Positions 18,208 to 43,994 of a stretch of DNA of 64,000 nt are shown one piece after another. The stretch covers positions 11,881-75,880 of the forward strand of contig JBAZZY010000010.1 in NCBI GenBank assembly GCA_041658565.1, in the 5' to 3' direction. How positions within the stretch are numbered: the stretch's first letter is position 1; each line of letters begins with the position of its first letter. The notes below the pieces were generated by a model. It was not told where the DNA came from. It saw only the letters and a program-made list of their open reading frames with translations, and did not search any database. The translations under genes and the position numbers were made by a program. The DNA comes from Actinomycetota bacterium (GTDB lineage: Bacteria; Actinomycetota; AC-67).

Positions 18208-20679
18208 GTGCGTCGATTCATTTGCTTGTCCGCGCTTCTCACGTGCGCGCTGGTGTCGTTCGTTACCATTCCCGCGCGCGCATTGTCGCTGACGACTGTC
18301 GTCGTCACTTTCGACACCCGGCCGACCGCCGACATGCTCGCCGAGGTCTCCGGTGTCGCCGTTGCCGTCCACGGGTTCAAGCATCTGCCGGCCGCGGTCG
18401 CCGTCGTGGCGCCGGGCGACGCAGGCCTGCTGGCGAACCTGCCGAGCGTGCGCCGCGTGTATCCGAACCGGGCCTTCACGTACCTGCTGCGGCAATCGAC
18501 GCGCACGGTCCGAGCAGACCAGGCATGGGACCTCGGGTACAACGGCGCGGGAATCGGGGTGGCGGTAATCGACGCCGGCGTCGATGGGTCGCGTCCCGAT
18601 CTTTGCGCCGCGCCGCAATTCTGCACCGGCACGGCCGTCAAGACCGTGCAGAACGTGAAGTTCGTCGGACGCCAGGACCTCGGCGTGGATCCGGTGTTGG
18701 TCCTTGAGGACCAGATAAACACCGACACGTCTTCCGGACACGGTTCCCACGTTGCCGGGATCGTCGGCTCCTGGGGCGTCTCCAGCGCCTACGAAGACGG
18801 CAAGTACCGCGGCGTCGCGTGGGGCGCGGACATCATCGGGCTCGGAACCGGTGAAGTCGCCACCGTCGACAACGTTCTCGCAGCCTACGACTGGGTCATC
18901 GCACACAGAGACGAGTACAACATCCGGGTCATCAACAACTCGTGGGGCCCGGGCGCCGGCGCACCCTTCGACCCCGAGGATCCGGTCCAGCGCGCAACGA
19001 CGGCCGCGCACGACGCGGGGATCGCCGTCGTTTTCGCGGCCGGCAACGAAGGCCCCACCACCGACACTCTCAATGCGTTCTCGGCGAACCCGGATGCGAT
19101 TTCAGTCGCGGCCGGGATGAAGGGCGGCCAGATCGCGTTCTTCTCCTCGCGCGGCGTGCCCGGCAGTTCCTTCTGGCACCCGACGGTCACCGCACCCGGG
19201 TACTTCATCGCCTCGGTCCGTGCCTCGACGGGCTTCTACGGCGACGTCGCCGACGCAACTGCGGGACCCAACCCGGATCTCGTGACCCCGCCGGACGACG
19301 TCTACTACGCGACATCCAGCGGCACGTCCATGGCGGCACCCCACGTCGCCGGCATCGTCGCGCTGATGCAGCAGGCTTCGTTCCAGAGTCGCGGCGCCTA
19401 CCTCACTCCCGACCAAATCAAGAACATCCTGCAGAACACCGCGGTTTCGAACGACCCGGCGCGCGGTTCCGGCGGTCTTCCCAACTACCAGCGGTACACC
19501 ATGGGAGCCGGCTACGCGGATGCGCTTGCCGCCACGACCGCGGCAGCTGCGGGCACGATGACTTCGGCATACAACCCACACACCGTCTACGACGTCCGGA
19601 CCTTCTCCGGCGACATCGGACCGTCGACGGTGTTCGGGGTGTCGCAATCCGTCACCTCGACCTTCCAGGTCAACGCCGGCGCGATCTCACTGGACGCGAT
19701 GATCGACTGGTCGCAGAAGGCGAACGGCCTCGATTTGGAGCTATACAACCCGTCGGGTGCGCTCGCGCACTCCACGTTCCTTCAGTGCAACCCCGACGCA
19801 GAGCCGAACGGCTTCTCGTGGTTCTGCACCCAAACCGCGAACCAGCGCATCGTGATCACGGCACCGGCTCCCGGCACGTGGACGGCCGTCGCACGCGGAA
19901 CGATCTCGGCCGTAGACACGGTCAGGGGCACGTGGTCCGCGGTCTACCCCGACACCACCACACTCCCACCCGCCCCGGCGCCGGCGTCGATCACAGTCGC
20001 TGCCTCGTCACCACCGGCGAGCACGACCGGTCAGAGCGCCGCGGGTCAAAGCGTCGCGTTCGTGGCCACCGTGCACGACGCGGCCGGCAATGCGCTGCCG
20101 AACGCACCGGTCGCATGGACGAGTTCGGGTGTGGGCCGAATCGAGTTTGGGGAGACCACGACGCACATCGACGGGACTGCCGACGCGTCTGCGCGAAGCG
20201 ACGTTGCCGGTAGCCAGACGATCACGGCATCCTCCGGGGAAGCAAGGGACTCGGCGAACCTCACGTGGATCGGCGTGACGTTGCCCGGCACCACGAGCAC
20301 GCCCGGCCGAGCGTCGGGCGGCGGTTGGATCCCCGGCGCCTCGTCACCCAAGAACACGTTTGGGTTCTGGTCCGAATACCGCGCCGAATGGACCGGCCCC
20401 CAAGGGGAAGTCTCGTTTAACGACCACGCCGATACAAAGGTGAAGGCGGCCGGCGTGAACCGACTCGAAATCACGGGGAGCACGGCAACGGTAACCGGCA
20501 CGGCGACCGTCAACGGCAGTTCGGGTTATCGCTTCCAGCTCACCATCGCCGACGACGGGACACCCGGTCACGGCAGCGACACATTCGACCTCCGGCTGAC
20601 CGCCGACCTGGACCCGCTGTGGACGTACCGGGCCACGGGAACGCTCCGGGGAGGCAATATCGTCGTGACGCGCGACTAG
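18208..20679 (+). CDS. Secreted subtilisin-like serine protease (S8) with C-terminal Ig-like/beta-sandwich extension
   Basis: Signal peptide. Catalytic triad contexts VAVIDAGVD, HGSHVAGIVGS, GTSMAAPHVAGIVALM. About 350-aa C-terminal extension. Confidence 0.85.
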   Translation: MRRFICLSALLTCALVSFVTIPARALSLTTVVVTFDTRPTADMLAEVSGVAVAVHGFKHLPAAVAVVAPGDAGLLANLPSVRRVYPNRAFTYLLRQSTRTVRADQAWDLGYNGAGIGVAVIDAGVDGSRPDLCAAPQFCTGTAVKTVQNVKFVGRQDLGVDPVLVLEDQINTDTSSGHGSHVAGIVGSWGVSSAYEDGKYRGVAWGADIIGLGTGEVATVDNVLAAYDWVIAHRDEYNIRVINNSWGPGAGAPFDPEDPVQRATTAAHDAGIAVVFAAGNEGPTTDTLNAFSANPDAISVAAGMKGGQIAFFSSRGVPGSSFWHPTVTAPGYFIASVRASTGFYGDVADATAGPNPDLVTPPDDVYYATSSGTSMAAPHVAGIVALMQQASFQSRGAYLTPDQIKNILQNTAVSNDPARGSGGLPNYQRYTMGAGYADALAATTAAAAGTMTSAYNPHTVYDVRTFSGDIGPSTVFGVSQSVTSTFQVNAGAISLDAMIDWSQKANGLDLELYNPSGALAHSTFLQCNPDAEPNGFSWFCTQTANQRIVITAPAPGTWTAVARGTISAVDTVRGTWSAVYPDTTTLPPAPAPASITVAASSPPASTTGQSAAGQSVAFVATVHDAAGNALPNAPVAWTSSGVGRIEFGETTTHIDGTADASARSDVAGSQTITASSGEARDSANLTWIGVTLPGTTSTPGRASGGGWIPGASSPKNTFGFWSEYRAEWTGPQGEVSFNDHADTKVKAAGVNRLEITGSTATVTGTATVNGSSGYRFQLTIADDGTPGHGSDTFDLRLTADLDPLWTYRATGTLRGGNIVVTRD

Positions 20680-20729: not shown

Positions 20730-23303
20730 TCATCTCGCGGCGGGACCGGCGAGCGCGAGGTGCGGGGCGTATGTCCGGTCCAAACGGGCGTCACTGTGCA
20801 CACGCGCCGGCCAGGTCTGGTCCAGAACCGCAGCGATGTGCTCGGCGGCGAGCGGCTTGCTCAGCAAGTAGCCCTGCGCGACGTCGCATCCCAGGGCGCT
20901 CAGTCGGTTCCACGCAAGCTCGGTCTCGACTCCCTCCGCAACGACGCGAAGACCGAGCGTCCGTCCAAGGTCGATGATCGAACGCACGATAACGGCGTCG
21001 TCCTCGTCGGCCGTCATGCCCATGACGAACGAGCGATCGATCTTGATCTCGTCTACAGGCAGTCGCTGCAGATACGACAGAGAGGAATACCCGGTGCCGA
21101 AGTCGTCGATCGAGATCGCAATCCCCATCGAACTCAACCGGGACAGGGTGCCGATCGATCGCGCCGGGTCGGTCATGATGTTCGTCTCGGTGACCTCGAG
21201 AGTGAGCGACGACGGATGAACTCCGGCGTCACGCAGGCGTCGCGCGATCTGATCCGGGAGCCCTTGATCCAGCAGCGTTCGTGCGGAGAGGTTGACGGCC
21301 ACACTCAGGTGGCGCCCGGCCGCCGACCACTTGGCGGATTGGCGAAGCGCGGCATCGAGCACCCAGTAGGTCAACGGACCGATCAAGCCGGTCTGCTCGG
21401 CGAGCGGAATGAAGTCGTCCGGCGAGACGAGGCCGCGACGGGGATGATTCCAGCGCACGAGCGCTTCGACGCCGGTGACCACGCCGCTGTCGATATCGGC
21501 CTTCGGCTGGAAGAACAGCATCAGCTCGTCCGATTCGATCGCATGCCGCAACTCGCCGACCAGGGCCAGCCGCGCGGGACTGTAGGGGTCGCGCTCGGGC
21601 GCGTAGATCTGCGCGCCGGCCTGCTCGCCCTTCGCGAAGTACATGGCGACGTCGGCGCGCTGCATCAAGGTGTCGGAGTCCTCACCGTGTTCGGGATACA
21701 GCGCGATGCCGATGCTCGCGCCGACGGTGATCGTAACCTCCTGCAGAACGATGGGCTGCTCGAGTGTGGCGCGCACGGCCTCGGCGACGCGCAGAGCGTC
21801 GACGGTGTCGGAAAGCCTCGGCAGGACGACGGCGAACTCGTCGCCTCCCAGCCTGGCAACGGTGTCACCTTCTCGCAACGAACCACGCAACCGGCGCGCC
21901 ATCTCCTGCAACAGCAGATCTCCGTTGTGATGGCCGAGTGTGTCGTTGACTTCCTTGAAACGATCCAGATCGATCATCATGATGGCGACTTGGTCTCCGG
22001 CGCGCGCGGCGGCCAGGACCGCTTGCCGCGTGCGATCACGGAGCAGCGTTCGATTAGGCAGGCCGGTCAGCGCGTCGTGAAGGGCTTGATGCTGGTTCTG
22101 CTCTGCCTGGATCTTGAGCCGATCCACGAGTTCGCCGTTGTGAACCATCGCGCTCGCGTGATTGGCAAACGTTTCGAAGAGCTTCAGGTCCTCGTGGTCG
22201 AAAGTGCCGACGTCCCCGAGGCGGTTGCGGACCATGATCGTTCCGGCAACCTTGTTCGCGACGTACAGCGGCGCCACCATCGCGTCGCGGATCCCCTGCG
22301 ACTCGAAATGCTCACGGAGGCGCTCGTTCTTGATCGGGCGAGGTATCAGCACCGCCTGCGCTTCCGACGCAACACGCGCCCACACGCCCTCGCCGGGATC
22401 AGGCCGCGCGGGCTCGGTAACGACATCGCCACCGTCGGCCCGGACGTACGTGCTCGTCGCTTCATGCTCCTCGTTCGCAAAGGCGACAACCTCCGCCGAT
22501 TCCGCATTGAACATCGCGCAGAGTTGCCGCAGTATCTCGGGGATGATGGAGCCCTCTTCGAGGGGCTTCTCGACGATGCGCGTCGAGTCGTAGAGAAGCT
22601 CGAGACTTCCGTACCGCTGCCGGGTCGTGACGTACGCGCGGTAGGTGACGATCATGACGGCGGCCGCGATCGTCAGCAGCCATGCCGCGCGCGAGTCGTG
22701 CCAGATCACCGTTGCAGCCAGAAGCGCAAGGCCGGTATTGGTCGCGGTGGCAACCAGCCCGAGTCCCGGGAGACCGCGAAGGGCATGCCACACCAATCGT
22801 CCTTCGAGCAGCGAAACCGCGAGAGTGATCATCAATGCCGACGCGAGATCGATCGTGAGCGTGGCGCCGAGCGCGGCCGCCCACCACCGGGGCCCGAGGG
22901 GCTCGGAGGCACTCGCGAAGCACTGGAAGACGACGACGGCCAGCGTGGTACCGATCGCGTACTGGCTCAGGTTGAAGACGAACTTGACCAGCGGTTGCCT
23001 GCGGTGGATCGCGAGCGCCACCGCTGATCCGGTGACGAGGGCCAAGATCAGCTCCGACGGCGGAGCGAAGAGCAATCCCAGGACGATCGGCAATTCGCTG
23101 ATCGAGAACGAGTGCGTGTCCCTGCGGACGTGCACATGCACGGCGAAGATCTCAGCCAGGCAGAACATCGCCGCAAGGAGCGTCCAGTGGATCCGGACGG
23201 GGGCACCGACCGGCGCCAACCCGCGGGTAACCCACACGTAGCCGGCCGCGGCAAGACAAGCCAAGAGTACGTTCAGGATCCAGACCCGGCGCGAACCGCA
23301 CAT
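20730..23303 (-). CDS. Membrane-bound GGDEF-EAL protein (diguanylate cyclase/phosphodiesterase) with N-terminal polytopic sensor domain and GAF-like linker
   Basis: Six or more TM helices. RLGGDEFAVVLP (GGDEF). EALVRW…DDFGTGYSSL (EAL). The N-terminal TM domain contains RRQPLVKFVFNLSQYAIG, homologous to the histidine kinase at 37795..39693. Confidence 0.85.
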   Translation of the reverse strand: MCGSRRVWILNVLLACLAAAGYVWVTRGLAPVGAPVRIHWTLLAAMFCLAEIFAVHVHVRRDTHSFSISELPIVLGLLFAPPSELILALVTGSAVALAIHRRQPLVKFVFNLSQYAIGTTLAVVVFQCFASASEPLGPRWWAAALGATLTIDLASALMITLAVSLLEGRLVWHALRGLPGLGLVATATNTGLALLAATVIWHDSRAAWLLTIAAAVMIVTYRAYVTTRQRYGSLELLYDSTRIVEKPLEEGSIIPEILRQLCAMFNAESAEVVAFANEEHEATSTYVRADGGDVVTEPARPDPGEGVWARVASEAQAVLIPRPIKNERLREHFESQGIRDAMVAPLYVANKVAGTIMVRNRLGDVGTFDHEDLKLFETFANHASAMVHNGELVDRLKIQAEQNQHQALHDALTGLPNRTLLRDRTRQAVLAAARAGDQVAIMMIDLDRFKEVNDTLGHHNGDLLLQEMARRLRGSLREGDTVARLGGDEFAVVLPRLSDTVDALRVAEAVRATLEQPIVLQEVTITVGASIGIALYPEHGEDSDTLMQRADVAMYFAKGEQAGAQIYAPERDPYSPARLALVGELRHAIESDELMLFFQPKADIDSGVVTGVEALVRWNHPRRGLVSPDDFIPLAEQTGLIGPLTYWVLDAALRQSAKWSAAGRHLSVAVNLSARTLLDQGLPDQIARRLRDAGVHPSSLTLEVTETNIMTDPARSIGTLSRLSSMGIAISIDDFGTGYSSLSYLQRLPVDEIKIDRSFVMGMTADEDDAVIVRSIIDLGRTLGLRVVAEGVETELAWNRLSALGCDVAQGYLLSKPLAAEHIAAVLDQTWPARVHSDARLDRTYAPHLALAGPAAR

Positions 23304-23306
23304 AAC

Positions 23307-25055
23307 CTAATCCCAGCTCCTCGCGGACCAGCCCTCGTCGGACCACGACCGGCCCGACCAGGATCTGCCCGACCAGGATCTGCCCGACCAGGACCTGCCG
23401 GACCAGGTTCGGCCGTCCCAGGTGTTGTCCGACCACGTGCGGCCCGACCACGTGCGGCCGGCGAAATCGTTCGCCGTCCAAGTCGCTCCCGCCCAGTCGA
23501 CGGTGCGCCAGACGCCACCCACCCACGTGACGCCTCGCAGGAACTGGTCGGTCCACGCCACGGCATCCCAGCCGACGCCGAAGAGGTCCTGCTCCCCGGT
23601 CAGTGCGACCGTGCCGTCCACGATGCGCAGTGAGCCGCGCGCCGCCTCAAGCGACCCAAGTCCCGTCGCGGGAACAAAGAGCTGCTTGGTCAGCAGCGCC
23701 GAAGGCGTCGTCTTGCCGAGCGCGACCTTGAGGTCGAGTGCACCCGCGCCTTGCGCCGCAACGGTTGCGCTCGGGATCTTCGTCGCCGATTGCCTCAATA
23801 GGGCCTTGATTTGATCCGGCGAGATGGTGGGCCGCTGTTGGAGGATCAAGGCTGCGGCGCCGGAAACGACGGCGGTCGCTTGTGAAGATCCGCTGCCTCG
23901 GAAGAACCGCCCACCGACGCGCGCAGATGGGAAGAGCTGGTCGATGTCCGATGCCGGGACGCGCAGTGACGCGACCGAAGTCCCCGGAGCAACGACGTCG
24001 GGGTTGCGCACACCGTCTCCCCGGCTGGACCACGACGGGATCGTCGCGTCGCTCGTGCCGTACAGCCCGCCCGGATCGGTGTACCCACCCACCGCGATGA
24101 CGTAAGGATCAATGGCCGGGTTCGTCATCCCGATGCTCTCGCCGCCGCGATTGCCGGCAGACACCACGACGACCAGACCCTTGCGCCAGGCAACTTCGGC
24201 CGCATAGGACAGCGGGTCAAGAAGGTAGCTCTGCAGACCGTAGCTTCCGAACGAAAGGTTCAAGACTCGGATGTTCAGACCGTCGCTCCTTGTGTGGTTG
24301 ACGACCCAGTCGATGCCGGCGATCACTTGAGAAACGTCCGTCCACCCTTGCGCGTCGGCCACCTTCACGCTCACAACGCGCGCGTCGGGAGCGATGCCGA
24401 GGAAGCGACTGGTGTTGCCGGCCTTCACCGCCGTGGCCGAATCGCGTCCGGCGATGATGCCCGCCATGTGCGTGCCGTGACCGAACGCATCTTTGTTGCG
24501 TAGGTTCGGCGCCTGCGACTCCACGGAGAAGTCCGGACCGTAGACAACCTTTCCGGCGTCGTTGAGGCCTTGCACGTTCGCAACGCCGGAGTCGATCAAC
24601 GCAACGTCGACTCCTTTGCCCGTGAAACCCTTGGCCCAGTAGCTGCTCGCGCCGGTGACTTTCTGCGCGATCGTGTAAAGGGAATATGGATCGGTGCCGG
24701 CGTCGTACCCGTTGGTCGCGGCGGCAAGCTGCACACGCCCGTTGCGGGTGACCGCCAAGATCCCGGACTCGGCGCTGAGACGATCCAACGACGCGCGCGG
24801 CACCTCGGCGACGAGGCCGCCGATAATGCCGATGCGGCGGACGGTGATGCCGCCTTCGCGCTCAACCGCGCGCTCGGCAGCCTGGGGCGATCCCGGAAGC
24901 GTACGCACGATCACCGAGACCATGTCCACGGTCGACGACGATCCGGACCGCGTGTCGCCCCAGGAACTGATCGCCAAGACGGCGACAATCAGTGAGGCTG
25001 CAACCGCGGACCTGCGACTCAGGCGCCTCTTCCCCATCCGTGCGTTCGCGTCCAT
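23307..25055 (-). CDS. Secreted S8 subtilase with I9 propeptide and C-terminal (G-R-S/T-W-S)n tryptophan-pentapeptide repeat tail
   Basis: Signal peptide MGKRRLSRRSAVAASLIVAVLA. Triad contexts VALIDSGV, HGTHMAGIIAG, GSSQATAVVSGAAALI. C-terminus GRTWSGRTWSDNTWDGRTWSGRSWSGRSWSGRSWSGRSWSDEGWSARSWD. The ORF extends to 25151. Confidence 0.8.
   Translation of the reverse strand: MDANARMGKRRLSRRSAVAASLIVAVLAISSWGDTRSGSSSTVDMVSVIVRTLPGSPQAAERAVEREGGITVRRIGIIGGLVAEVPRASLDRLSAESGILAVTRNGRVQLAAATNGYDAGTDPYSLYTIAQKVTGASSYWAKGFTGKGVDVALIDSGVANVQGLNDAGKVVYGPDFSVESQAPNLRNKDAFGHGTHMAGIIAGRDSATAVKAGNTSRFLGIAPDARVVSVKVADAQGWTDVSQVIAGIDWVVNHTRSDGLNIRVLNLSFGSYGLQSYLLDPLSYAAEVAWRKGLVVVVSAGNRGGESIGMTNPAIDPYVIAVGGYTDPGGLYGTSDATIPSWSSRGDGVRNPDVVAPGTSVASLRVPASDIDQLFPSARVGGRFFRGSGSSQATAVVSGAAALILQQRPTISPDQIKALLRQSATKIPSATVAAQGAGALDLKVALGKTTPSALLTKQLFVPATGLGSLEAARGSLRIVDGTVALTGEQDLFGVGWDAVAWTDQFLRGVTWVGGVWRTVDWAGATWTANDFAGRTWSGRTWSDNTWDGRTWSGRSWSGRSWSGRSWSGRSWSDEGWSARSWD
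23310..23459 (-). repeat. 15-bp-period tandem repeat encoding 10 Trp-pentapeptides (GR[ST]WS) at the subtilase C-terminus
   Basis: …cccgaccaggatctgcccgaccaggatctgcccgaccaggacctgccggaccagg… Strict 15-nt periodicity. Confidence 0.85.
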
Positions 25056-25202
25056 AGCAATGCCTCCGCGTCGTTCTCGTACGTCTATGTACGGAGCCCA
25101 CCAATCCCGGAAACATGGCCTCCCGCCGTCATTCCACGCGCGCGCAGCCACTACGCGAGCTATCGATCTCTCTAACTACGCCGGCGTGATCGCTCCATGC
25201 TT

Positions 25203-36205: not shown

Positions 36206-37750
36206 CTACTCCCACTCGATGGTCGCCGGAGGCTTCGACGTGATGTCGTACGCCACGCGGTTGACGCCCGGAACTTCGGCGATGATCCTCGACGCCATTC
36301 GCTCCAACAGGTCGTAGGGCAGACGAGCCCAGTCGGCCGTCATCGCGTCTTCGCTCGTGACCGCCCGGATGACGATCGGGTGCGCGTACGAGCGTTCGTC
36401 ACCCATGACGCCGACGGTACGCACATCGGGCAAGATCGCAAAAGACTGCCACAACTCGCGCATCAGTCCCGCTTTGCGAACCTCGTCGAGCACGACCGCG
36501 TCTGCTCCGCGCAAGATCTCCAGCTTCTCCGCGTCCACATCACCAATCACGCGAATCGCAAGGCCCGGCCCCGGAAACGGTTGCCGCCAGACGATCTCGT
36601 CGGGAAGCCCCATCTCCTCACCGATCGCCCGAACTTCGTCCTTGAACAAATTGCGCAAAGGCTCGACGAGTTCGAAGTCCATGTCCTCGGGGAGACCGCC
36701 GACGTTGTGGTGGCTCTTGATCTTGGCTGCGTCGCGCGTGCCGGACTCGATGATGTCGGGGTACAGCGTCCCTTGGACCAAGAAGCGCGCGCCGGCGAGA
36801 TCGGTGCGAGCGACTTCCTCGAACACCCGGATGAACTCCTCGCCGATCGCCTTACGTTTGCGCTCGGGGTCACTGACGCCGGCCAGCCGCCCGAGGAAAC
36901 GATCCTGCGCCTTCACGTGGATCAAGTTGATTCGGAAGAGGCGCCGGAAGGTCTCCTCCACCTGTTCGGCCTCACCAGCCCGCAGGAGTCCGTGGTCGAC
37001 GAAGATGCACGTGAGGTTGTCGCCGACGGCCTTGTGCACCAGCACCGCGGCCACCGAAGAATCCACGCCGCCGGAGAGCCCGCATACGATGCGCTCACTC
37101 CCCACGCGTTCGCGAACCTCGCGCACGGCTTCTTCGATGATCGAGACGCGAGTCCACACCGGCCGCGCGTCGCAGGCTTCGTAGAGGAAGTTCTTGAGCA
37201 GATCGAGTCCGCGCGGCGTGTGCGCAACCTCAGGGTGGAACTGAACTCCGTACAACCCCCGCGCGCGATCTTCGAACCCCGCCACGGGCGAGGACTCAGA
37301 CGAAGCCGTCACCTGGAAGCCCTCGGGCGCGCGCACGACGACATCGCCGTGACTCATCCAAACCGTCTGCTGCTCCGGCAACCCCTTGAACAGCGAAGGC
37401 GTACCGAGCACCTGCAGGTCGGTCTTGCCGTACTCACGGGTACCGGTCTTGGCGACCTCGCCACCGAGGGCCTTGGCCATGGCCTGCTGCCCGTAGCAGA
37501 TACCAAGCACAGGAATGCCCAGCTCAAAGAACTCGGGGTTCACGGCCGGAGCACCCGCCGAATAGACGCTCGCCGGACCGCCCGACAAGATCAGCCCGCG
37601 CGGCGCGCGGCGGCGGATCTCATCGACGGGAACGTCGTGAGGAAGGATCTCGGAGTAAACCTTGCACTCGCGAACGCGGCGCGCGATCAGTTGTGCGTAC
37701 TGCGCGCCGTAATCGATCACGAGAACGGAATCAAAGGAGGATGCGTCCAC
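36206..37750 (-). CDS. guaA: GMP synthase (glutamine-hydrolysing)
   Basis: GATase N-terminus (LVIDYGAQY…ICYGQQ) and PP-loop SGGVDSSV. Confidence 0.95.
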
Positions 37751-37794
37751 GGTGCGCGCAGTATAACGCTCGCGTGCCCGGGCCGAATCGGCCG

Positions 37795-39693
37795 CTAGCC
37801 GGCGGGGTCGGACTCCGCCCGCTCCGGCGGCACGGCCGGCCGAGGCGGCTGAGCCGGCAAGGCTTCAGCCGGGTCTCCCGGCGCGCGCGGGATCTGGGGG
37901 AGGTCGGAACGCCGGCGCTGCGGAAGCGCCGGCGCAGCGGCCGAAACCGGCAGCAACACGGTGAACGTGCTCCCACTGCCCAACTCACTTTCCAACTGGA
38001 CCGACCCGCCCATCGCCAGCGCAAGTTGTCGCACGATGAACAGCCCGAGGCCTGCTCCGCCGGTCTCCATGCGCAAAGGGTCCTCGAGACGCTTGAATTT
38101 CTCGAAGATCTCTTCAGTGCGGTCCGGCGGAATGCCCCGACCCTCGTCGCGCACTCTGATCTGTATCCACTTCCCCGTCTGCTCAGCCTCGACGTCGACC
38201 GGAGCCCCATCGTCGGAGAACTTCACGGCGTTAGAGACCAGGTTGGCAACGACCTGCTCGATTCGAATCGCATCACCCAGGACCGTGAGGTCCTCCGCCG
38301 CCTGAAAGCGGAACTCCCGCGAGGGGTGCGAGACGCGGAACGACCGCAGCGCGCGCTCGACCACCGGAACGACCGCAACCGGTTGCCGATTGACCTCCGG
38401 CATCCGCCGCTCGTCGGTGTTCGCGATCCGCGACGCCAGCAGCATGTCCTCAACCAGCCGCGCCATGTGATCGGTCCGCTCCAGAATGGACTGCACGGCT
38501 TCGCGGCGACGCTCGCTCGGCAAATCGTCCATGCGGCGAAGCAACAACGACGCGTATCCCTTGATCGGCGTGAGCGGAGTCCGCAACTCGTGCGAGACCG
38601 TCGAGAAGAAGTCGTCCTTCAACCGATCGACTTCGCGCTGCCGGGTCACGTCGGTGACGACCAAGACATCAAAGGTCAGCTCTCCGCGCTCGTCGAACCC
38701 AGGTCCGTGTTGAACGCGCAGCCAACGCGGAGTCCCGTCGGCAGCGATGATCTCGATGTCGACCGGCTCGCCCTCAGCGGAAACGTCGATCGTAAGCCAC
38801 TGGCCGAAGACACCCTTGCCTCGCAGCAGATAGGACAGCGCTTTGCCGGTCGCTTCCTCGCGCGACACGCCGGTCGCGCGCTCCATCGAAGGGCTCCACA
38901 AAAGGACGGCCCCCGACGCATCGGCAAGCACGATCCCTTCGCTCGAATGCTCCAGAATCCGGCCGAGCTTGGTGGACTCCTCCTCCATCTTGCGCGACAG
39001 TTCCTTCTCTTTGACCCAGCCTCCAAATGCCAGGTGCAGAGCAAGCGTCGGGGCGAGAACGGCCGGCAACAACTCGGGCCGCGTCAGATACAGGGACACC
39101 GCCACCATCCCGACCGCCGAGTTGCCAAGACCGAGGGAGAACGACATCCCCCCCTCCTCCGCGAGAACCTTCCGCAGCGGACGATCGGTCGTCGCGGCGA
39201 TGATGGCCGAGATCGTCACCAAGTTGCCGGCCGTGAAGATCGCCATCCCGGCCACGATCGCAAGCAACCCGGCCGTCGAATCGAAGTCCCCACCGCCGAA
39301 GGTGTGGTACAGCCCGATGGCCGGGACGATCCCGACCGCGTACTGACCCAGGTTGAAGATGAACTTAACTAGTGGCCGGCGCCGAATCACGAGCGCCACG
39401 GCGAGCCCGCCGATCGAAACCAACGCCGCCATCGAGGCCGGCAGCAGCACGATGTCGGCAACGACCGCCAGTTCGAACAACGTGAGCATCTCGGCCGACC
39501 GGCCGTGGCGATAGCGGATCGCGACGAGTTCCGACACTGCCGTCAAGCCGAGCAGAAGCCCGGCCTGATGCGCCGATGTCCCCGAGAACGACGGCGGATC
39601 GGCGAGACACGCGGCCGCCAAGGCAACGGCCCCGCCGATCGACACTGCCCAGATGAGAAGAGTTGTGGCTTGTAGCTGTCTCCCCCGAGTCAC
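37795..39693 (-). CDS. Membrane sensor histidine kinase: polytopic N-terminal domain (paralogous to the GGDEF-EAL protein N-terminus), PAS-like, HisKA, HATPase
   Basis: [18 protein letters not shown] in the TM domain. H-box [19 protein letters not shown] boxes. Pro-rich C-terminal tail. Confidence 0.85.
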
Positions 39694-39702
39694 GAGTGCA
39701 GC

Positions 39703-41379
39703 CTACCCCCAGCCGTCTGCATCCCAGCGACGGGCGTCCCAGCGGCGTGCGTCCCACTGGCCGGCATCCCAACGCCTGGCGTCCCAGCGGCGTGCATCCC
39801 AGCGGCGTGCGTCCCAACGGCGCGCGTCCCAACGGCGCGCGTCCCAGCGGCGTGCGTCCCAACGCCTGGCCGCCCACTGCCTGGCCGCCCACTGGCGCGC
39901 GGCCCACTGCCTGGCCGCCCACTGGCGCGCGGCCCACTGCCTGGCCGCCCACTGGCGCGCGTCCCAATCGTTCAAGTCCCAACGACGGGCGTCCCAGCGA
40001 CGCGCTGCCCACTCCTGCGCCCCGTCGGCTCGGCTTCGGACCCACTCCGCATCGAGCCCGCGCGGCATCCACGGCTTGTCGAGTTCGCCGAGATCGGGAA
40101 CCGGCGGAAGCTCCGGCATTTCTCCATCGAAGAGGACTGCTTCGTTCGCGTCGACCTCGCCGGCTCCGACCGAGTCGGGGTCGCCGTCGGACACGTCCGC
40201 TGCCGTCGCCTGCATTAACGCCTTGACTTCGTCCGGCGACAGTTCAGGCTTTGCTTGCAGGATGAGCGCAGCCGCACCGGCGGCAGCCGCCGAGGACATG
40301 CTCGTCCCCGAGCCCCTGAAGTATGCGTCGTCCACGCGTGCCGACGGGTACTCCTCGTCGATCGTCGAGCCCGGGGCGCGAAGTGAGACGAGGTGCTCGC
40401 CCGGCGCAGCGATGTCGGGCTTCTCGTCGCCCCATCGCGTCGGACCGCGGCCTGAGTATTCCGAAACCGTGTCGTCGCCCTGGGAACCGGTCGCGTGGTC
40501 GTCAACCGAACCGGCCGTCAACAGCACCGGGTCTTCGCCCGGAGAAGCAATCGTCTTCGCGTCGGGACCCTCGTTGCCGGAGGGAACGACAACTACGATC
40601 CCGCGCGCCCACAACTCGCGCAACGCGTTGGTCAGCGGATCGAGTTCCGGCGGCAACGGCGACTCGGAGTGCAGCGCGAGCAACACGACGCCCACGTTGA
40701 ACCGGTTGGCCGAGACGTCTACGAGCTGGATCCCCGCCAGCACCTGTCCGAGACTCGTCATCCCCGAGCGATCCGCGACCTTGACCGACATCAAGTTCGC
40801 CTCGGGAGCAACCCCGACGTACTTCCCGTCGGACGATGCCCCGTTCCCGGCGATGATGCCCGCCTGGAACGTGCCGTGTCCGTAGGTGTCTTCGAGACTC
40901 CGCTCTTTGGTGAAGTTGGCGCGCGCAACCACGCGGCCACGAAGGTCGGGGACGTCGGCGATGCCTGTATCGATCAGCGCCACCGTGACACCGCGGCCGG
41001 TGATCTCCCGACTCCACAGTGCCGGCGCGCCGACGGCTTGCGGGTACGCCGAGACGAGTGCGTCGCCGTACGATGCGCTCTGCAAGTGCAGGGTTCGGTC
41101 GGGAACCACAATGGCGCGCGCGGACAGTTCGTCCATGCGAGATTCGGGCACGCGCGCAGAGACGCCGCCGATGATTGGCAGAACGTTGTCGATCTCGCCG
41201 CGGGCTCCGAGAGTCAGATCAACCGCGGACGTAGCGTCGCGGCTCATCACGATCACGGGGACGTAGCGGCCAAGAGCCTCCACAGCCGGCGCTCCGCCAA
41301 GAACCAGCAGCAACGCCACAACCATCGTCGTCGCCAGACGGCGAACTCGATGCTGCTCCGCAAACACGAGCGTCGTCAT
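39703..41379 (-). CDS. Secreted S8 subtilase with I9 propeptide and about 21-unit C-terminal (A-R-R/Q-W-D/A)n tryptophan-pentapeptide repeat tail
   Basis: Signal peptide. Triad contexts VALIDTGIADV, YGHGTFQAGIIAG, GTSMSSAAAAGAAALI. C-terminal about 105 aa: …RRWDARRWDLNDWDARQWAARQWAARQWAAR…RRWDARRWDARRWD…. Start overlaps the stop of the upstream receiver gene by 4 bp. Confidence 0.85.
   Translation of the reverse strand: MTTLVFAEQHRVRRLATTMVVALLLVLGGAPAVEALGRYVPVIVMSRDATSAVDLTLGARGEIDNVLPIIGGVSARVPESRMDELSARAIVVPDRTLHLQSASYGDALVSAYPQAVGAPALWSREITGRGVTVALIDTGIADVPDLRGRVVARANFTKERSLEDTYGHGTFQAGIIAGNGASSDGKYVGVAPEANLMSVKVADRSGMTSLGQVLAGIQLVDVSANRFNVGVVLLALHSESPLPPELDPLTNALRELWARGIVVVVPSGNEGPDAKTIASPGEDPVLLTAGSVDDHATGSQGDDTVSEYSGRGPTRWGDEKPDIAAPGEHLVSLRAPGSTIDEEYPSARVDDAYFRGSGTSMSSAAAAGAAALILQAKPELSPDEVKALMQATAADVSDGDPDSVGAGEVDANEAVLFDGEMPELPPVPDLGELDKPWMPRGLDAEWVRSRADGAQEWAARRWDARRWDLNDWDARQWAARQWAARQWAARQWAARQWAARQWAARRWDARRWDARRWDARRWDARRWDARRWDARRWDAGQWDARRWDARRWDADGWG
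39706..40020 (-). repeat. 15-bp-period tandem repeat (about 21 units) encoding the Trp-pentapeptide tail
   Basis: …gcgtcccagcggcgtgcgtcccaacggcgcgcgtcccaacggcgcgcgtcccagcggcg… Strict 15-nt period with unit variants (cagcggcgtgcgtcc / cactgcctggccgcc / cactggcgcgcggcc). Confidence 0.9.
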
Positions 41380-41756
41380 GCCGCCACCCCCGACGTCAGA
41401 TCGTGGACAACGTTGATCAGGTCTTCGGGCTCGAACGGCTTATTCATGTAGTAGTGACAGCCGGCGCTCCAGCCCTTCCATGTGGAGTCGGGATCGTCGA
41501 GCGCGGTCAGCATCACGACGGGGAGTTCTCGAGTGCTTTCCTGGGCGCGGATCTTCTCGAGTACAGCGAACCCGTCCATGCCCGGCATCATCACGTCGAG
41601 CACAACAAGGCTCGGAGTGCGAACACGGATGCGCTCGAGCGCGGTGGCACCATCGCCCACCGCCTCGACCTCATAACCTTCCATCTCCAGCGTGTGCTGG
41701 AGCAGTGTTCGGGTGGCGAGGTTGTCCTCCACGACCAAGATCCTCGGACTACTCAT
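41376..41756 (-). CDS. Single-domain response regulator (CheY-like receiver, no output domain)
   Basis: MSSPRILVVEDN…LVVLDVMMPGMDGFAVL…VVMLTA…KPF has the receiver aspartate and lysine contexts. Confidence 0.8.
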   Translation of the reverse strand: MSSPRILVVEDNLATRTLLQHTLEMEGYEVEAVGDGATALERIRVRTPSLVVLDVMMPGMDGFAVLEKIRAQESTRELPVVMLTALDDPDSTWKGWSAGCHYYMNKPFEPEDLINVVHDLTSGVAA

Positions 41757-41925
41757 CGTCGTCCCCTGTGTCCGCCAAGACCGGCAAAAGCTGCCTGTCA
41801 CTGGTGTATATATCGGCGCTCTTCGCGAATCCCTCCAGACCAGGAGCGGTGCTAAATGAGCGACACGAAATGACTAGAAGAGCGGGGACTTCGGTCGGTT
41901 TCGGACGAAATCGCGGAAGCGAGGA

Positions 41926-42825
41926 CTACTCCGAGCGAAGCAGCGCAAGGTCCGCGAGGTCGTAGCGATCGAAGTCGTCGGGCGGCCCGCCGGAAAGAAG
42001 GGCACCGATCGATATGTCTTCTATCGCCCAGAACATCACCGACGTCTGATATCGCGAGTGGTATCGGTGGTCGGGATCCTCATGCGCGTACTTGCTGGTG
42101 TAGCCGAGGTTCACCAGCGCGAGCAAGTGCCCGACCTCGTGCGTGAGCACCGACCGCTCGATCGCCCCCGGCTGCACGAGTGAGGTGGAGGCCGAAGAAA
42201 TCTGGTCGGCGAAGATCGCCGCTCCCGAGGCTTCGTACGCCACTCCGAGAGTCGAGTCATCCCCCTGCAAGGTTCCGTTCAAGTACACGATCCACATCGT
42301 TGCCGTCTGCGCCGACGAGTGGATCGTTCGGTACCGGCGCTCGAGGCGCCCGATCTCTTCAATGGAGTATGCATCCGACGTCGGCGAGAACTCCGGGCCG
42401 ACGCGAAGCGTGATTCCACCCGGCTTGTCGGCCTCCCGGCGCAAGATCGAAAGGACGTGATCCAACGCGGCCTGCGAAGGGCGGCTGCCGCTGGTGTAGG
42501 CGACCTGGATCTCCAATGCGCGCGCCGGCGACGCGCGCAGGTACGACCGCGCCATCTCACCCACCCCGCCGGAGTCCTGGTAGACGCGGCTGGAAGGCGT
42601 CGAAGACGCCACTCCGGTGCCAGTGCCGCGCGCCGCAGTGGGAGACGGACCGACGCGCGCCGGCGATGCCGCGGACGACCCGCCGGAGCGACGGGGTGAC
42701 GGAACACCCGAACCGTAACCAGCCGACGGCCCGGTCGGAGCCGCGCACGCCGTCAGAACCAACGCCGCTACGGCCGCAAGGCCGAGTGTCCGAAAGACCC
42801 GGGCGCGCGCCCCGATGACGCTCAT
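41926..42825 (-). CDS. Lipoprotein, putative zinc metallopeptidase (HExxH)
   Basis: Lipobox LVLTACAAP. HEVGHLLAL zincin motif with downstream acidic residues. Ser/Pro-rich linker. Confidence 0.5.
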   Translation of the reverse strand: MSVIGARARVFRTLGLAAVAALVLTACAAPTGPSAGYGSGVPSPRRSGGSSAASPARVGPSPTAARGTGTGVASSTPSSRVYQDSGGVGEMARSYLRASPARALEIQVAYTSGSRPSQAALDHVLSILRREADKPGGITLRVGPEFSPTSDAYSIEEIGRLERRYRTIHSSAQTATMWIVYLNGTLQGDDSTLGVAYEASGAAIFADQISSASTSLVQPGAIERSVLTHEVGHLLALVNLGYTSKYAHEDPDHRYHSRYQTSVMFWAIEDISIGALLSGGPPDDFDRYDLADLALLRSE

Positions 42826-43994
42826 CCCATTCCGACGCCCTGGGCCCGCTGGTAGGTCTTGCCCTCAGACATGAACGACGCGCTCACAGCAACCTCCACC
42901 CGCTGAAAATCGCGGATGTTCTGGTAGCCGCAGTCGGCCATGCTCGTCTGCAAGGCGCCGAACAGGTTCATGGTCCCGTCGTTGACGGGAGCGGGTCCAA
43001 GCAGGATCTCACGAAGCGTTCCGGCAATACGCGTCTTGACGCGGGTGCCGCGAGGAAGTTCGGGGTGGAACGTGGCCATGCCCCAGTGGTAGCCGCGGCC
43101 GGGAGCCTCCGAGGCGCGCGTCAACGGCGAGCCGATCATCACAGCGTCGGCTCCGCATGCGATCGCCTTCGAGATGTCGCCGCCGGTGCGCATTCCCCCG
43201 TCGGCGATGACGTGCACGTACCGACCGGTTTCCTGCAGATGGCGCGTGCGCGCGCCCGCAGCATCGGCGATCGCCGTCGCCTGCGGAACGCCGATCCCAA
43301 GAACGCCGCGAGTCGTGCACGCGGCGCCGGGACCGACGCCTACCAAGACGCCGACGGCGCCGGTGCGCATCAAGTGCAGCGCGGTCTCGTAAGACGCGCA
43401 GCCTCCGACGATGACCGGCAGTTCGTACGACGCGATGAACTCCTTCAAGTTCAACGGCTCCGTACGCGTCGAGACGTGCTCGGCCGACACCACCGTTCCC
43501 TGGATCACCAGGATGTCCAACTCGGCGTCCAGGGCGATCTTGTGGAACCGCTCGACGCGCTGGGGCGTAAGCGACGCCGCAGCGACGACCCCGGCATCCT
43601 TGATCTGGCGAATACGCTTGTGGATCAACTCATCCTTGATCGGTGCGGCGTATATCTCTTGCATGCGGTGAGTCGCCTCGGCATCCGGGAGGGTCGCGAT
43701 CTCCTCGTAGATCGGATCCGGGTCCTCGTACCGAGACCACAGGCCCTCGAGGTTGAGCACCGCAAGACCACCGAGCTGGCCGATCTCGATCGCGGTCGCG
43801 GGAGACACGACCGCATCCATTGCGGACGCAAGCAACGGAAGCGAGAACTTGAAGGCATCGATCTCCCAAGAGGGATCGACGTCGTCCCGGTCGCGCGTCC
43901 GCCGTGAGGGAACGATCGAGATCTCGTCGAATCCGTACGCGCGCCGCGCCGTCTTGCCTATCCCAAGTTCAACTTCCGCCATGCCGTCCTCCAA
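42822..43994 (-). CDS. guaB3: IMP dehydrogenase-family protein lacking CBS pair (GuaB3-like)
   Basis: FDEISIVPSRRTRDRDDV…IVGGCASYETALHLMRTGA…IADGGMRTGGDISKAIACGADAVMIGS TIM-barrel IMPDH motifs. About 390 aa without CBS insertion. Confidence 0.85.
   Translation of the reverse strand: MEDGMAEVELGIGKTARRAYGFDEISIVPSRRTRDRDDVDPSWEIDAFKFSLPLLASAMDAVVSPATAIEIGQLGGLAVLNLEGLWSRYEDPDPIYEEIATLPDAEATHRMQEIYAAPIKDELIHKRIRQIKDAGVVAAASLTPQRVERFHKIALDAELDILVIQGTVVSAEHVSTRTEPLNLKEFIASYELPVIVGGCASYETALHLMRTGAVGVLVGVGPGAACTTRGVLGIGVPQATAIADAAGARTRHLQETGRYVHVIADGGMRTGGDISKAIACGADAVMIGSPLTRASEAPGRGYHWGMATFHPELPRGTRVKTRIAGTLREILLGPAPVNDGTMNLFGALQTSMADCGYQNIRDFQRVEVAVSASFMSEGKTYQRAQGVGMG

Follow-up and report, generated by a model that had tools for sequence, protein, structure and literature searches.

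Why should a secreted protease ending in a long run of evenly spaced tryptophans be encoded within a two-component operon? The question is raised by a 64,000-nucleotide stretch of an Actinomycetota genome (contig JBAZZY010000010.1, positions 11,881 to 75,880; hereafter the window), in which three minus-strand genes at 37795..41801 encode a receiver-only response regulator, an S8-family subtilase with a C-terminal Trp pentapeptide tail (W-tail) and a sensor histidine kinase. These three genes had been proposed in a preliminary description of the window, and their identity, coordinates and tight packing are borne out by the open reading frames (ORFs), by Pfam and by the junctions: the regulator stop overlaps the subtilase start in an ATGA, and 9 nucleotides (nt) lie between the subtilase stop and the GTG start of the kinase. 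The HisKA (68 bits) and HATPase_c (105 bits) domains of the kinase and the Response_reg domain of the regulator (98 bits) are encoded together in adjacent or overlapping genes, which predicts a two-component system. Comparison across genomes leads us to conclude that the locus represents a two-gene sensory module, hitherto undescribed and widespread in Actinomycetota and Chloroflexota, made up of the tailed subtilase and a transducer with a MASE9-like membrane input domain. The parts belong to known families, namely S8 subtilases, two-component kinases and receivers, and MASE9-related input domains; what is new is the tail and the systematic pairing. The preliminary description had not recognised the arrangement from any known family, and in the literature searched and in Pfam, NCBIfam and PADLOC we likewise found no description of either the Trp pentapeptide tail or the subtilase-sensor pairing.

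Pairing of tailed subtilases with membrane sensors

Genomes were scanned, one per species of the GTDB, with a subtilase alignment as query, and this yielded 80 loci. At each locus the subtilase ORF was extended, its tail scored and the next gene identified, and a sensor was counted by means of a hidden Markov model (HMM) of the sensor N-terminal domain (N-domain). A gene for this domain adjoins 54 of 59 informative tailed subtilases as against 3 of 13 untailed ones (Fisher p = 1.3e-6); the three untailed subtilases beside a sensor carry degenerate W repeats, and the other ten have no sensor. For nearly all tailed subtilases the next gene on the same strand encodes 500-1270 amino acids (aa), and the intervening gap has a median of 8 nt and does not exceed 25 nt in 37 of 50 cases. 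The gene order is reversed in three loci from Solirubrobacterales and relatives (L058, L061 and L064), where the sensor lies directly upstream of the subtilase and is still adjacent to it, indicating that adjacency survives rearrangement.

The converse relationship was examined in metagenomes by a search that had the sensor motif R[RK][PT][LP][VLK]K[FSA][AI]FN as its sole anchor and gave 54 confirmed loci, 42 of them informative in that they retain at least 700 nt of upstream DNA. In 41 of these 42, the DNA ahead of the sensor gene encodes an S8 catalytic domain and a W-periodic tail that stops close to the sensor gene. The 42 loci reduce to 22 clusters at 90% identity and to 6-9 deep lineages, so the effective sample is modest and the result consistent. 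The gene-neighbourhood check for an adjacent membrane sensor that the preliminary description had suggested is thus strongly positive in both directions, and it does not bear out the outcome that would have told against its proposal, a majority of tailed homologues lying without a sensor: 5 of 59 do so.

The downstream proteins share their membrane domain and differ in what follows it. Jackhmmer searches started from kinase residues 1-235 recovered the full-length N-domain in 51 of 53 downstream proteins irrespective of output, whereas Pfam assigns HATPase_c to 25 of the 53, HisKA to 23, GGDEF to 25, EAL to 23, SpoIIE to 2 and HD_5 to 1, with PAS or GAF domains in between. Typed by output, 23 of the 53 pairs end in a histidine kinase, 27 in GGDEF or GGDEF-EAL and 3 in other domains. 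As the output is interchangeable and the membrane input domain constant, the link must be at signal input, and on this genomic comparison we consider input-level coupling of protease and sensor as such highly probable. The earlier suggestion that the protease is coupled to a two-component system therefore stands as regards the protease-sensor pairing and falls as regards the system: the conserved unit has two genes, and because its output is GGDEF-EAL as often as kinase, the module is not intrinsically a two-component system. Nor does the receiver hold as a core part, as had been supposed. Among the flanking genes of 50 loci we found no third conserved component beyond response regulators, which are the only recurrent extra neighbour and occur beside the module in only 12 of the 50, in most cases as the preceding gene in the same orientation (before the subtilase in L001, L004, L014, L016, L031, L057 and L080). 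The receiver is an accessory part in a subset of kinase-type modules. The module itself is spread through Frankiales, Mycobacteriales, Micromonosporales, Propionibacteriales, Geodermatophilales, Acidimicrobiia, Thermoleophilia and Nitriliruptoria in the Actinomycetota, and through Chloroflexota. Carriers in culture include Actinoplanes sp. NBRC 103695 (L014) and Krasilnikovia sp. MM14-A1004 (L080), in which the genes run regulator, subtilase, kinase, and Nocardioides eburneus DS6 (L032), Geodermatophilus arenarius and G. tzadiensis (L067 and L070), whose partners are of the GGDEF-EAL type.

Protease and sensor also diversify together. In the 53 pairs, the distance matrix of the subtilase catalytic domains is correlated with that of the sensor N-domains (Mantel r = 0.70, a value reached in 0 of 2000 permutations). 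For 28 of the 53 the two matrices agree on which locus is nearest, and in 42 of 50 cases the output type is shared with the nearest subtilase. The window itself contains a second, paralogous pair, whose sensor combines a MASE9-like domain of eight transmembrane (TM) segments with GAF, GGDEF and EAL domains and whose sensor gene start overlaps the stop region of the second subtilase. The two window pairs are deeply divergent (59% and 80% differences, the 59% being that between the subtilase catalytic domains), and the nearest relatives of each are pairs from other genomes with a matching output type. This kinship, taken with the co-diversification, indicates that pairs have been inherited and duplicated as units. 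Locus L066 similarly carries two complete pairs, one of the kinase and one of the GGDEF-EAL type, about 6 kb apart. The two-gene module is thereby shown, at the level of comparative genomics, to be near-obligate and co-evolving.

These observations bear on a simpler explanation, according to which the subtilase is a surface or nutritional protease whose tail binds a cell-wall polymer and which is merely co-transcribed with the sensor or regulated by it. Short aromatic-rich repeats are common in wall- and glycan-binding modules, and such a role would agree with a tail that is not predicted to partition into lipid and with sensor outside loops that are not conserved. It sits poorly with outputs that range over kinase, GGDEF-EAL, PP2C and HD-type domains behind a constant input domain, since regulation of a neighbouring gene cannot then be the shared feature, and with an association that is near-obligate both ways. 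Moreover, the pairs co-diversify, paralogous pairs within one genome included, and the frequent start/stop overlaps suggest stoichiometric co-production. We therefore regard mere co-expression as unlikely.

The protease and its tryptophan-repeat tail

The first subtilase of the window comprises a signal peptide (about aa 1-36), a pro-subtilisin-type propeptide (about 37-111), a catalytic domain (112-420), a linker and the W-tail. Its N-terminus, with a charged segment, a hydrophobic helix and a PAxxA-type end, is conserved through the family and fits Sec export. The catalytic residues D137, H168 and S360 and the oxyanion-hole N269 place the protein in family S8 and do not vary among 118 homologues or among all 53 subtilases paired with a sensor. 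An AlphaFold2 model built on the 118-sequence alignment has a predicted local distance difference test (pLDDT) score above 90 across residues 40-420, which adopt a propeptide plus catalytic-domain fold, and the top Foldseek matches of the model are unprocessed pro-subtilases, namely ProN-Tk-SP (3afg, E = 1e-30), pro-subtilisin E and pro-Tk-subtilisin. Tk-SP is also the closest sequence in the PDB (3afg/9ues, 170 bits). From sequence and model we conclude that the first subtilase is a pro-subtilase that is exported and active; it is no mycosin. The mycosin model TIGR03921, though the best NCBIfam match, scores 160.3 bits against a cut-off of 278.75, and MycP1 (4hvl) reaches only 59 bits; the C-terminus is a polar W-tail with no TM anchor, and the gene has guaA, guaB3 and the regulator and kinase genes as its neighbours. 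We also rejected a role in anti-phage defence, for which PADLOC returned generic domain matches only (subtilase model 109 bits, weak IetS and receiver matches).

The tail, estimated at about 21 units in the preliminary description, occupies residues 457-558 and consists of 20 full units of W-[D/A]-A-R-[R/Q] followed by a terminal WG, giving 21 Trp; Tandem Repeats Finder reports a period of 15 nt across 39718..40011. A word-indexed homologue search with the subtilase returned more than 4,000 proteins at E <= 1e-10, and 173 were examined in detail. All but one of these (172/173) have W at five-residue spacing near the C-terminus, and the tail is thus not a chance feature. The family unit logo reads W, A/D/S, A/G/S (90%), R (61%) and S/Q/T/N. 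The number of units per protein runs from 6 to 42 with a median of 18, and 149 of 172 tails (87%) stop exactly one residue past the last W, the final unit being degenerate. Whole clades are Arg-free, with units GSAWN, AAGNW or SVSWN instead. A protein 98% identical to the window subtilase in another assembly (P0001, locus L081) has two units fewer (548 versus 558 aa), which indicates that the copy number of the 15-nt repeat shifts fast and always in frame. Some Chloroflexota relatives have six-residue tail periods (AAWNAS, GGYLWT), and other relatives have W-Y doublets (WYGNS, WYASK), Arg-free SVSWN or DVSHW; across the loci with such variants (L077, L051, L024, L026, L027, L039, L045, L059 and L092) the common denominator is periodic Trp spaced by small or polar residues.

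No repeat family in Pfam matches the tail. A pentapeptide-repeat beta-helix (PF00805) was considered and rejected, as Pfam gives no such match on the subtilase and the AlphaFold2 model contains no beta-helix in this region (pLDDT 31-50). Simple anchoring at a lipid interface was rejected too: Wimley-White interfacial energies are marginal for the family (mean -0.29 kcal/mol per unit) and unfavourable for the first-subtilase tail (+0.52). Any coupling between tail and sensor would have to use specific binding.

A tail of this kind might, alternatively, be a polyprotein. The subtilase would cut after each Trp and free dozens of x-[A/G/S]-R-x-W pentapeptides per molecule, which would act as an autocrine or quorum signal perceived within the membrane by the MASE9-like domain. 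The S8 family generally prefers large hydrophobic or aromatic P1 residues. Such a signal has a precedent in Bacillus, whose Phr pentapeptides are matured by proteases of the subtilisin type (subtilisin, Epr, Vpr). It is also favoured by the strict conservation of the catalytic residues along with the tail, the freedom of unit number (from 6 to 42, and two units fewer at 98% identity) and the end point one residue past the last W in 149 of 172 tails, by which the tail divides into whole units. Yet within a single protein the units differ at three of their five positions, the many Arg-free tails (GSAWN, AAGNW) mean that no single defined peptide is conserved, and no gene for a peptide importer or a cytoplasmic receptor recurs among the neighbours. 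We therefore consider a self-encoded peptide signal quite unlikely. Were this unlikely case true, Actinomycetota and Chloroflexota would possess a peptide autoinducer system of a new class, and a MASE9-type domain would have its first ligand.

The membrane input domain and a co-sensor model

The N-domain of the kinase matches Pfam MASE9 at 28.8 bits (cut-off 24.3). Hydropathy and the AlphaFold2 secondary structure agree on about eight long helices, the AlphaFold2 model being of low confidence (5-sequence alignment, mean pLDDT 49), and the predicted outside loops are about 4-12 residues long. E74, K110, F113 and N114 are nearly invariant in the family alignment, where they contribute to an RRxxxKxxFN motif. 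The second window sensor scores 18.1 bits, below the MASE9 cut-off, and a MASE9 match at E <= 1e-3 was obtained for 9 of the 53 partner proteins. The traits of the MASE9 type are nevertheless present, with about eight TM segments, short outside loops and fusion to varied outputs (kinase, GGDEF-EAL, SpoIIE, HD_5). On these sequence grounds we assign the N-domain to a MASE9-related but divergent subfamily with its own RRxxxKxxFN motif. A word-indexed protein search for further sensor relatives gave 4 matches with a 51-sequence N-domain alignment and 1 with the window domain, as transmembrane words swamp the index.

MASE9 domains have been proposed to bind a ligand inside the membrane, their periplasmic segments being short and poorly conserved (Galperin and Chou, bioRxiv 10.1101/2021.11.05.467447). 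The outside loops of the module sensors agree with this view, and the domain is probably unable to survey the exterior by itself. The same loops weigh on the possibility that the sensor is the substrate, in which case the protease would cleave the outside loops of the transducer, or a protein bound there, and the tail would only localise the enzyme. A conserved active site, tight adjacency and co-diversifying pairs would all be expected of an enzyme and its substrate; loops of about 4-12 poorly conserved residues, however, make poor protease substrates, and we judge this possibility very improbable.

In order to rationalise the pairing, we hypothesise that the protease acts on the input side as an extracytoplasmic co-sensor for a transducer that would itself be blind to the outside. 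The W-tail would either keep the protease at the membrane domain or report the state of the protease to it, and the membrane domain would read the state of the tail (free, engaged or trimmed) and so set the output. At 37795..41801 the kinase would then phosphorylate the co-encoded receiver-only regulator, while the paralogous pair at 20730..25151 would feed cyclic di-GMP (c-di-GMP) turnover instead. Kinases of the intramembrane-sensing type that depend on accessory proteins are documented in LiaFSR (PMC3543457) and BceS-BceAB (10.1101/2020.02.28.969956), where accessory proteins play the part here proposed for the protease. We regard the co-sensor model as the most economical one. We lean towards the complete proposal, an extracytoplasmic co-sensor for an intramembrane-sensing transducer with the tail as coupling element, and hold it with moderate confidence.

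Several observations weigh against the proposal. Its evidence base is comparative genomics entirely. Five tailed subtilases lack an adjacent sensor, and species phylogeny contributes to the mirror-tree correlation. The tail receives no confident fold from AlphaFold2 (pLDDT 31-50), and its interfacial energies, marginal for the family mean and unfavourable in the first subtilase, speak against a plain lipid anchor. The outside loops of the N-domain are poorly conserved and present no evident docking site. A scan for promoters and terminators inside and around the operon gave nothing above shuffled expectation. Finally, a remote relative of the N-domain, the 401-aa MASE9-like GGDEF protein P0122, occurs without a subtilase, which indicates that the pairing is the mark of one subfamily within the MASE9-like domains.

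Almost nothing is known of the signals to which MASE-type membrane sensor domains respond, and a near-obligate, co-evolving protease partner offers a testable handle on them. Output from the module goes into phosphorelay as well as c-di-GMP signalling, and a genome can contain more than one copy of it. The module probably serves the soil-dominant Actinomycetota and Chloroflexota as a general means of taking in envelope or environmental signals, and the pairing suggests that bacteria have a protease-dependent mode of environmental sensing not described before. The Trp pentapeptide tail represents a new kind of bacterial repeat region.

Local setting and comparison with known systems

The features of both window pairs and of their neighbourhoods are collected in the table. 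For the regulator, ATG 41756 is the likeliest start within the longer ORF, and the resulting length matches the one called independently on a contig of 98% identity, where the kinase ORF call is identical as well. NCBIfam indicates similarity of the kinase core to PhoR/WalK-like proteins, with every score under its cut-off. The block lies between guaB3 and guaA, as the preliminary description had it, and 44 nt (37751..37794) separate the kinase stop from the GTG start of guaA. This interval contains no terminator-like structure. Transcription of the sensor operon could run on into guaA. As to the proposed insertion into a conserved guaB3-guaA backbone, the position is right for this genome and does not extend to the family: the setting with guaB3, the HExxH lipoprotein gene and guaA is restricted to the closest relatives (L001 and L081), and elsewhere the pair sits amid unrelated genes. 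Both the location next to guaB3 and guaA and the presence of a regulator gene are local, lineage-specific features.

The HExxH lipoprotein noted earlier is indeed encoded between guaB3 and the regulator, and is not part of the module. With its lipobox LTAC and an HEVGH motif it may represent an uncharacterised zinc-metallopeptidase family; it has no match in Pfam, NCBIfam, PADLOC or the PDB. It is kept in this position only in the closest relatives (L001, 47% identity, and L081), which places it outside the widespread module.

The second pair is flanked by two plus-strand genes. On one side, a gene for a receiver protein with a weak GerE/LuxR-type helix-turn-helix diverges from the module. On the other, a gene for an untailed S8 subtilase with PPC and Big_1 domains converges on the end of the second sensor gene, and three subtilases are thus encoded inside 24 kb of the window.

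Table. Coordinates and supporting matches of features in the window, listed by position.
Feature	Position	Length	Strand	Basis or remarks
Untailed S8 subtilase	18208..20679	823 aa	plus	PPC and Big_1 domains
Second sensor: MASE9-like 8-TM, GAF, GGDEF, EAL	20730..23303	857 aa	minus	N-domain HMM E = 2e-52; Pfam
Second W-tailed S8 subtilase, paralogous	23307..25151	614 aa	minus	Pfam Peptidase_S8 150 bits; tail ...GRTWSGRTWSDNTWDGRTWSGRSWSGRSWSGRSWSGRSWSDEGWSARSWD
Receiver with weak GerE/LuxR-type helix-turn-helix	25277..25969		plus	Response_reg E = 4e-12; GerE E = 1e-3
guaA (GMP synthase)	36206..37750			flank of the three-gene block
Sensor histidine kinase	37795..39693	632 aa	minus	Pfam MASE9, PAS, HisKA, HATPase_c
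MASE9-like polytopic membrane input domain (kinase aa 1-235)	38989..39693	235 aa	minus	Jackhmmer, alignment, Pfam MASE9
Secreted S8 pro-subtilase (first subtilase)	39703..41379	558 aa	minus	Pfam Peptidase_S8 E = 7e-43, 147 bits (cut-off 21.8)
C-terminal Trp pentapeptide tail of first subtilase	39706..40011		minus	sequence, Tandem Repeats Finder, unit list
Receiver-only (CheY-like) response regulator	41376..41756 (ORF 41376..41801)	126 aa	minus	Pfam Response_reg E = 3.8e-28, 98 bits
Lipoprotein with lipobox LTAC and HEVGH	41926..42825	299 aa	minus	between guaB3 and regulator
GuaB3	42822..43994			other flank; TIGR01304, 562 bits

Among proteins with known structures, the catalytic and propeptide parts come closest to Tk-SP, in sequence as well as in fold. 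The C-terminal domain of Tk-SP is a folded beta-jelly-roll, whereas the module subtilase ends in the Trp pentapeptide repeat and is linked to a sensor gene. The mycosin MycP offers a likeness of another sort, as an actinobacterial S8 protease working at the membrane within a complex of membrane proteins; the module subtilase differs from it in its pro-subtilisin-type propeptide, in the absence of a C-terminal TM anchor and in that no ecc/esx-type family recurs nearby. For the tail, the nearest sequence analogy is the WR region of Nanog, in which Trp at every fifth residue drives self-association. This is an analogy and not homology, since Nanog is a eukaryotic nuclear transcription factor with other spacer residues and a length fixed at about 10 units. 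The Phr/Rap systems of Bacillus, with secreted pentapeptides released by subtilisin-family proteases, resemble the peptide-signal alternative. Phr precursors, however, are encoded by small separate genes and their receptors are cytoplasmic tetratricopeptide-repeat proteins reached via Opp, whereas the module precursor would be fused to the protease and its receptor would be a membrane domain.

On the sensor side, MASE9 (PF20972) shares with the module transducers an 8-TM input with short outside segments and promiscuous fusion to HD-GYP, GGDEF-EAL and other outputs (bioRxiv 10.1101/2021.11.05.467447); unlike for the module sensors, no obligatory protease partner has been reported for it. The organisation of the pair is closest in kind to LiaS-LiaF and BceS-BceAB, where, as in the module, a transducer with a negligible extracytoplasmic domain is encoded beside an accessory protein, and where LiaF or BceAB does the sensing. 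In those systems the accessory is a membrane protein (LiaF) or an ATP-binding cassette transporter (BceAB), whereas that of the module is a secreted serine protease with a Trp tail. The module accessory furthermore serves non-kinase outputs (GGDEF-EAL, PP2C and HD-type), and it is found in phyla other than those of the Lia and Bce systems.

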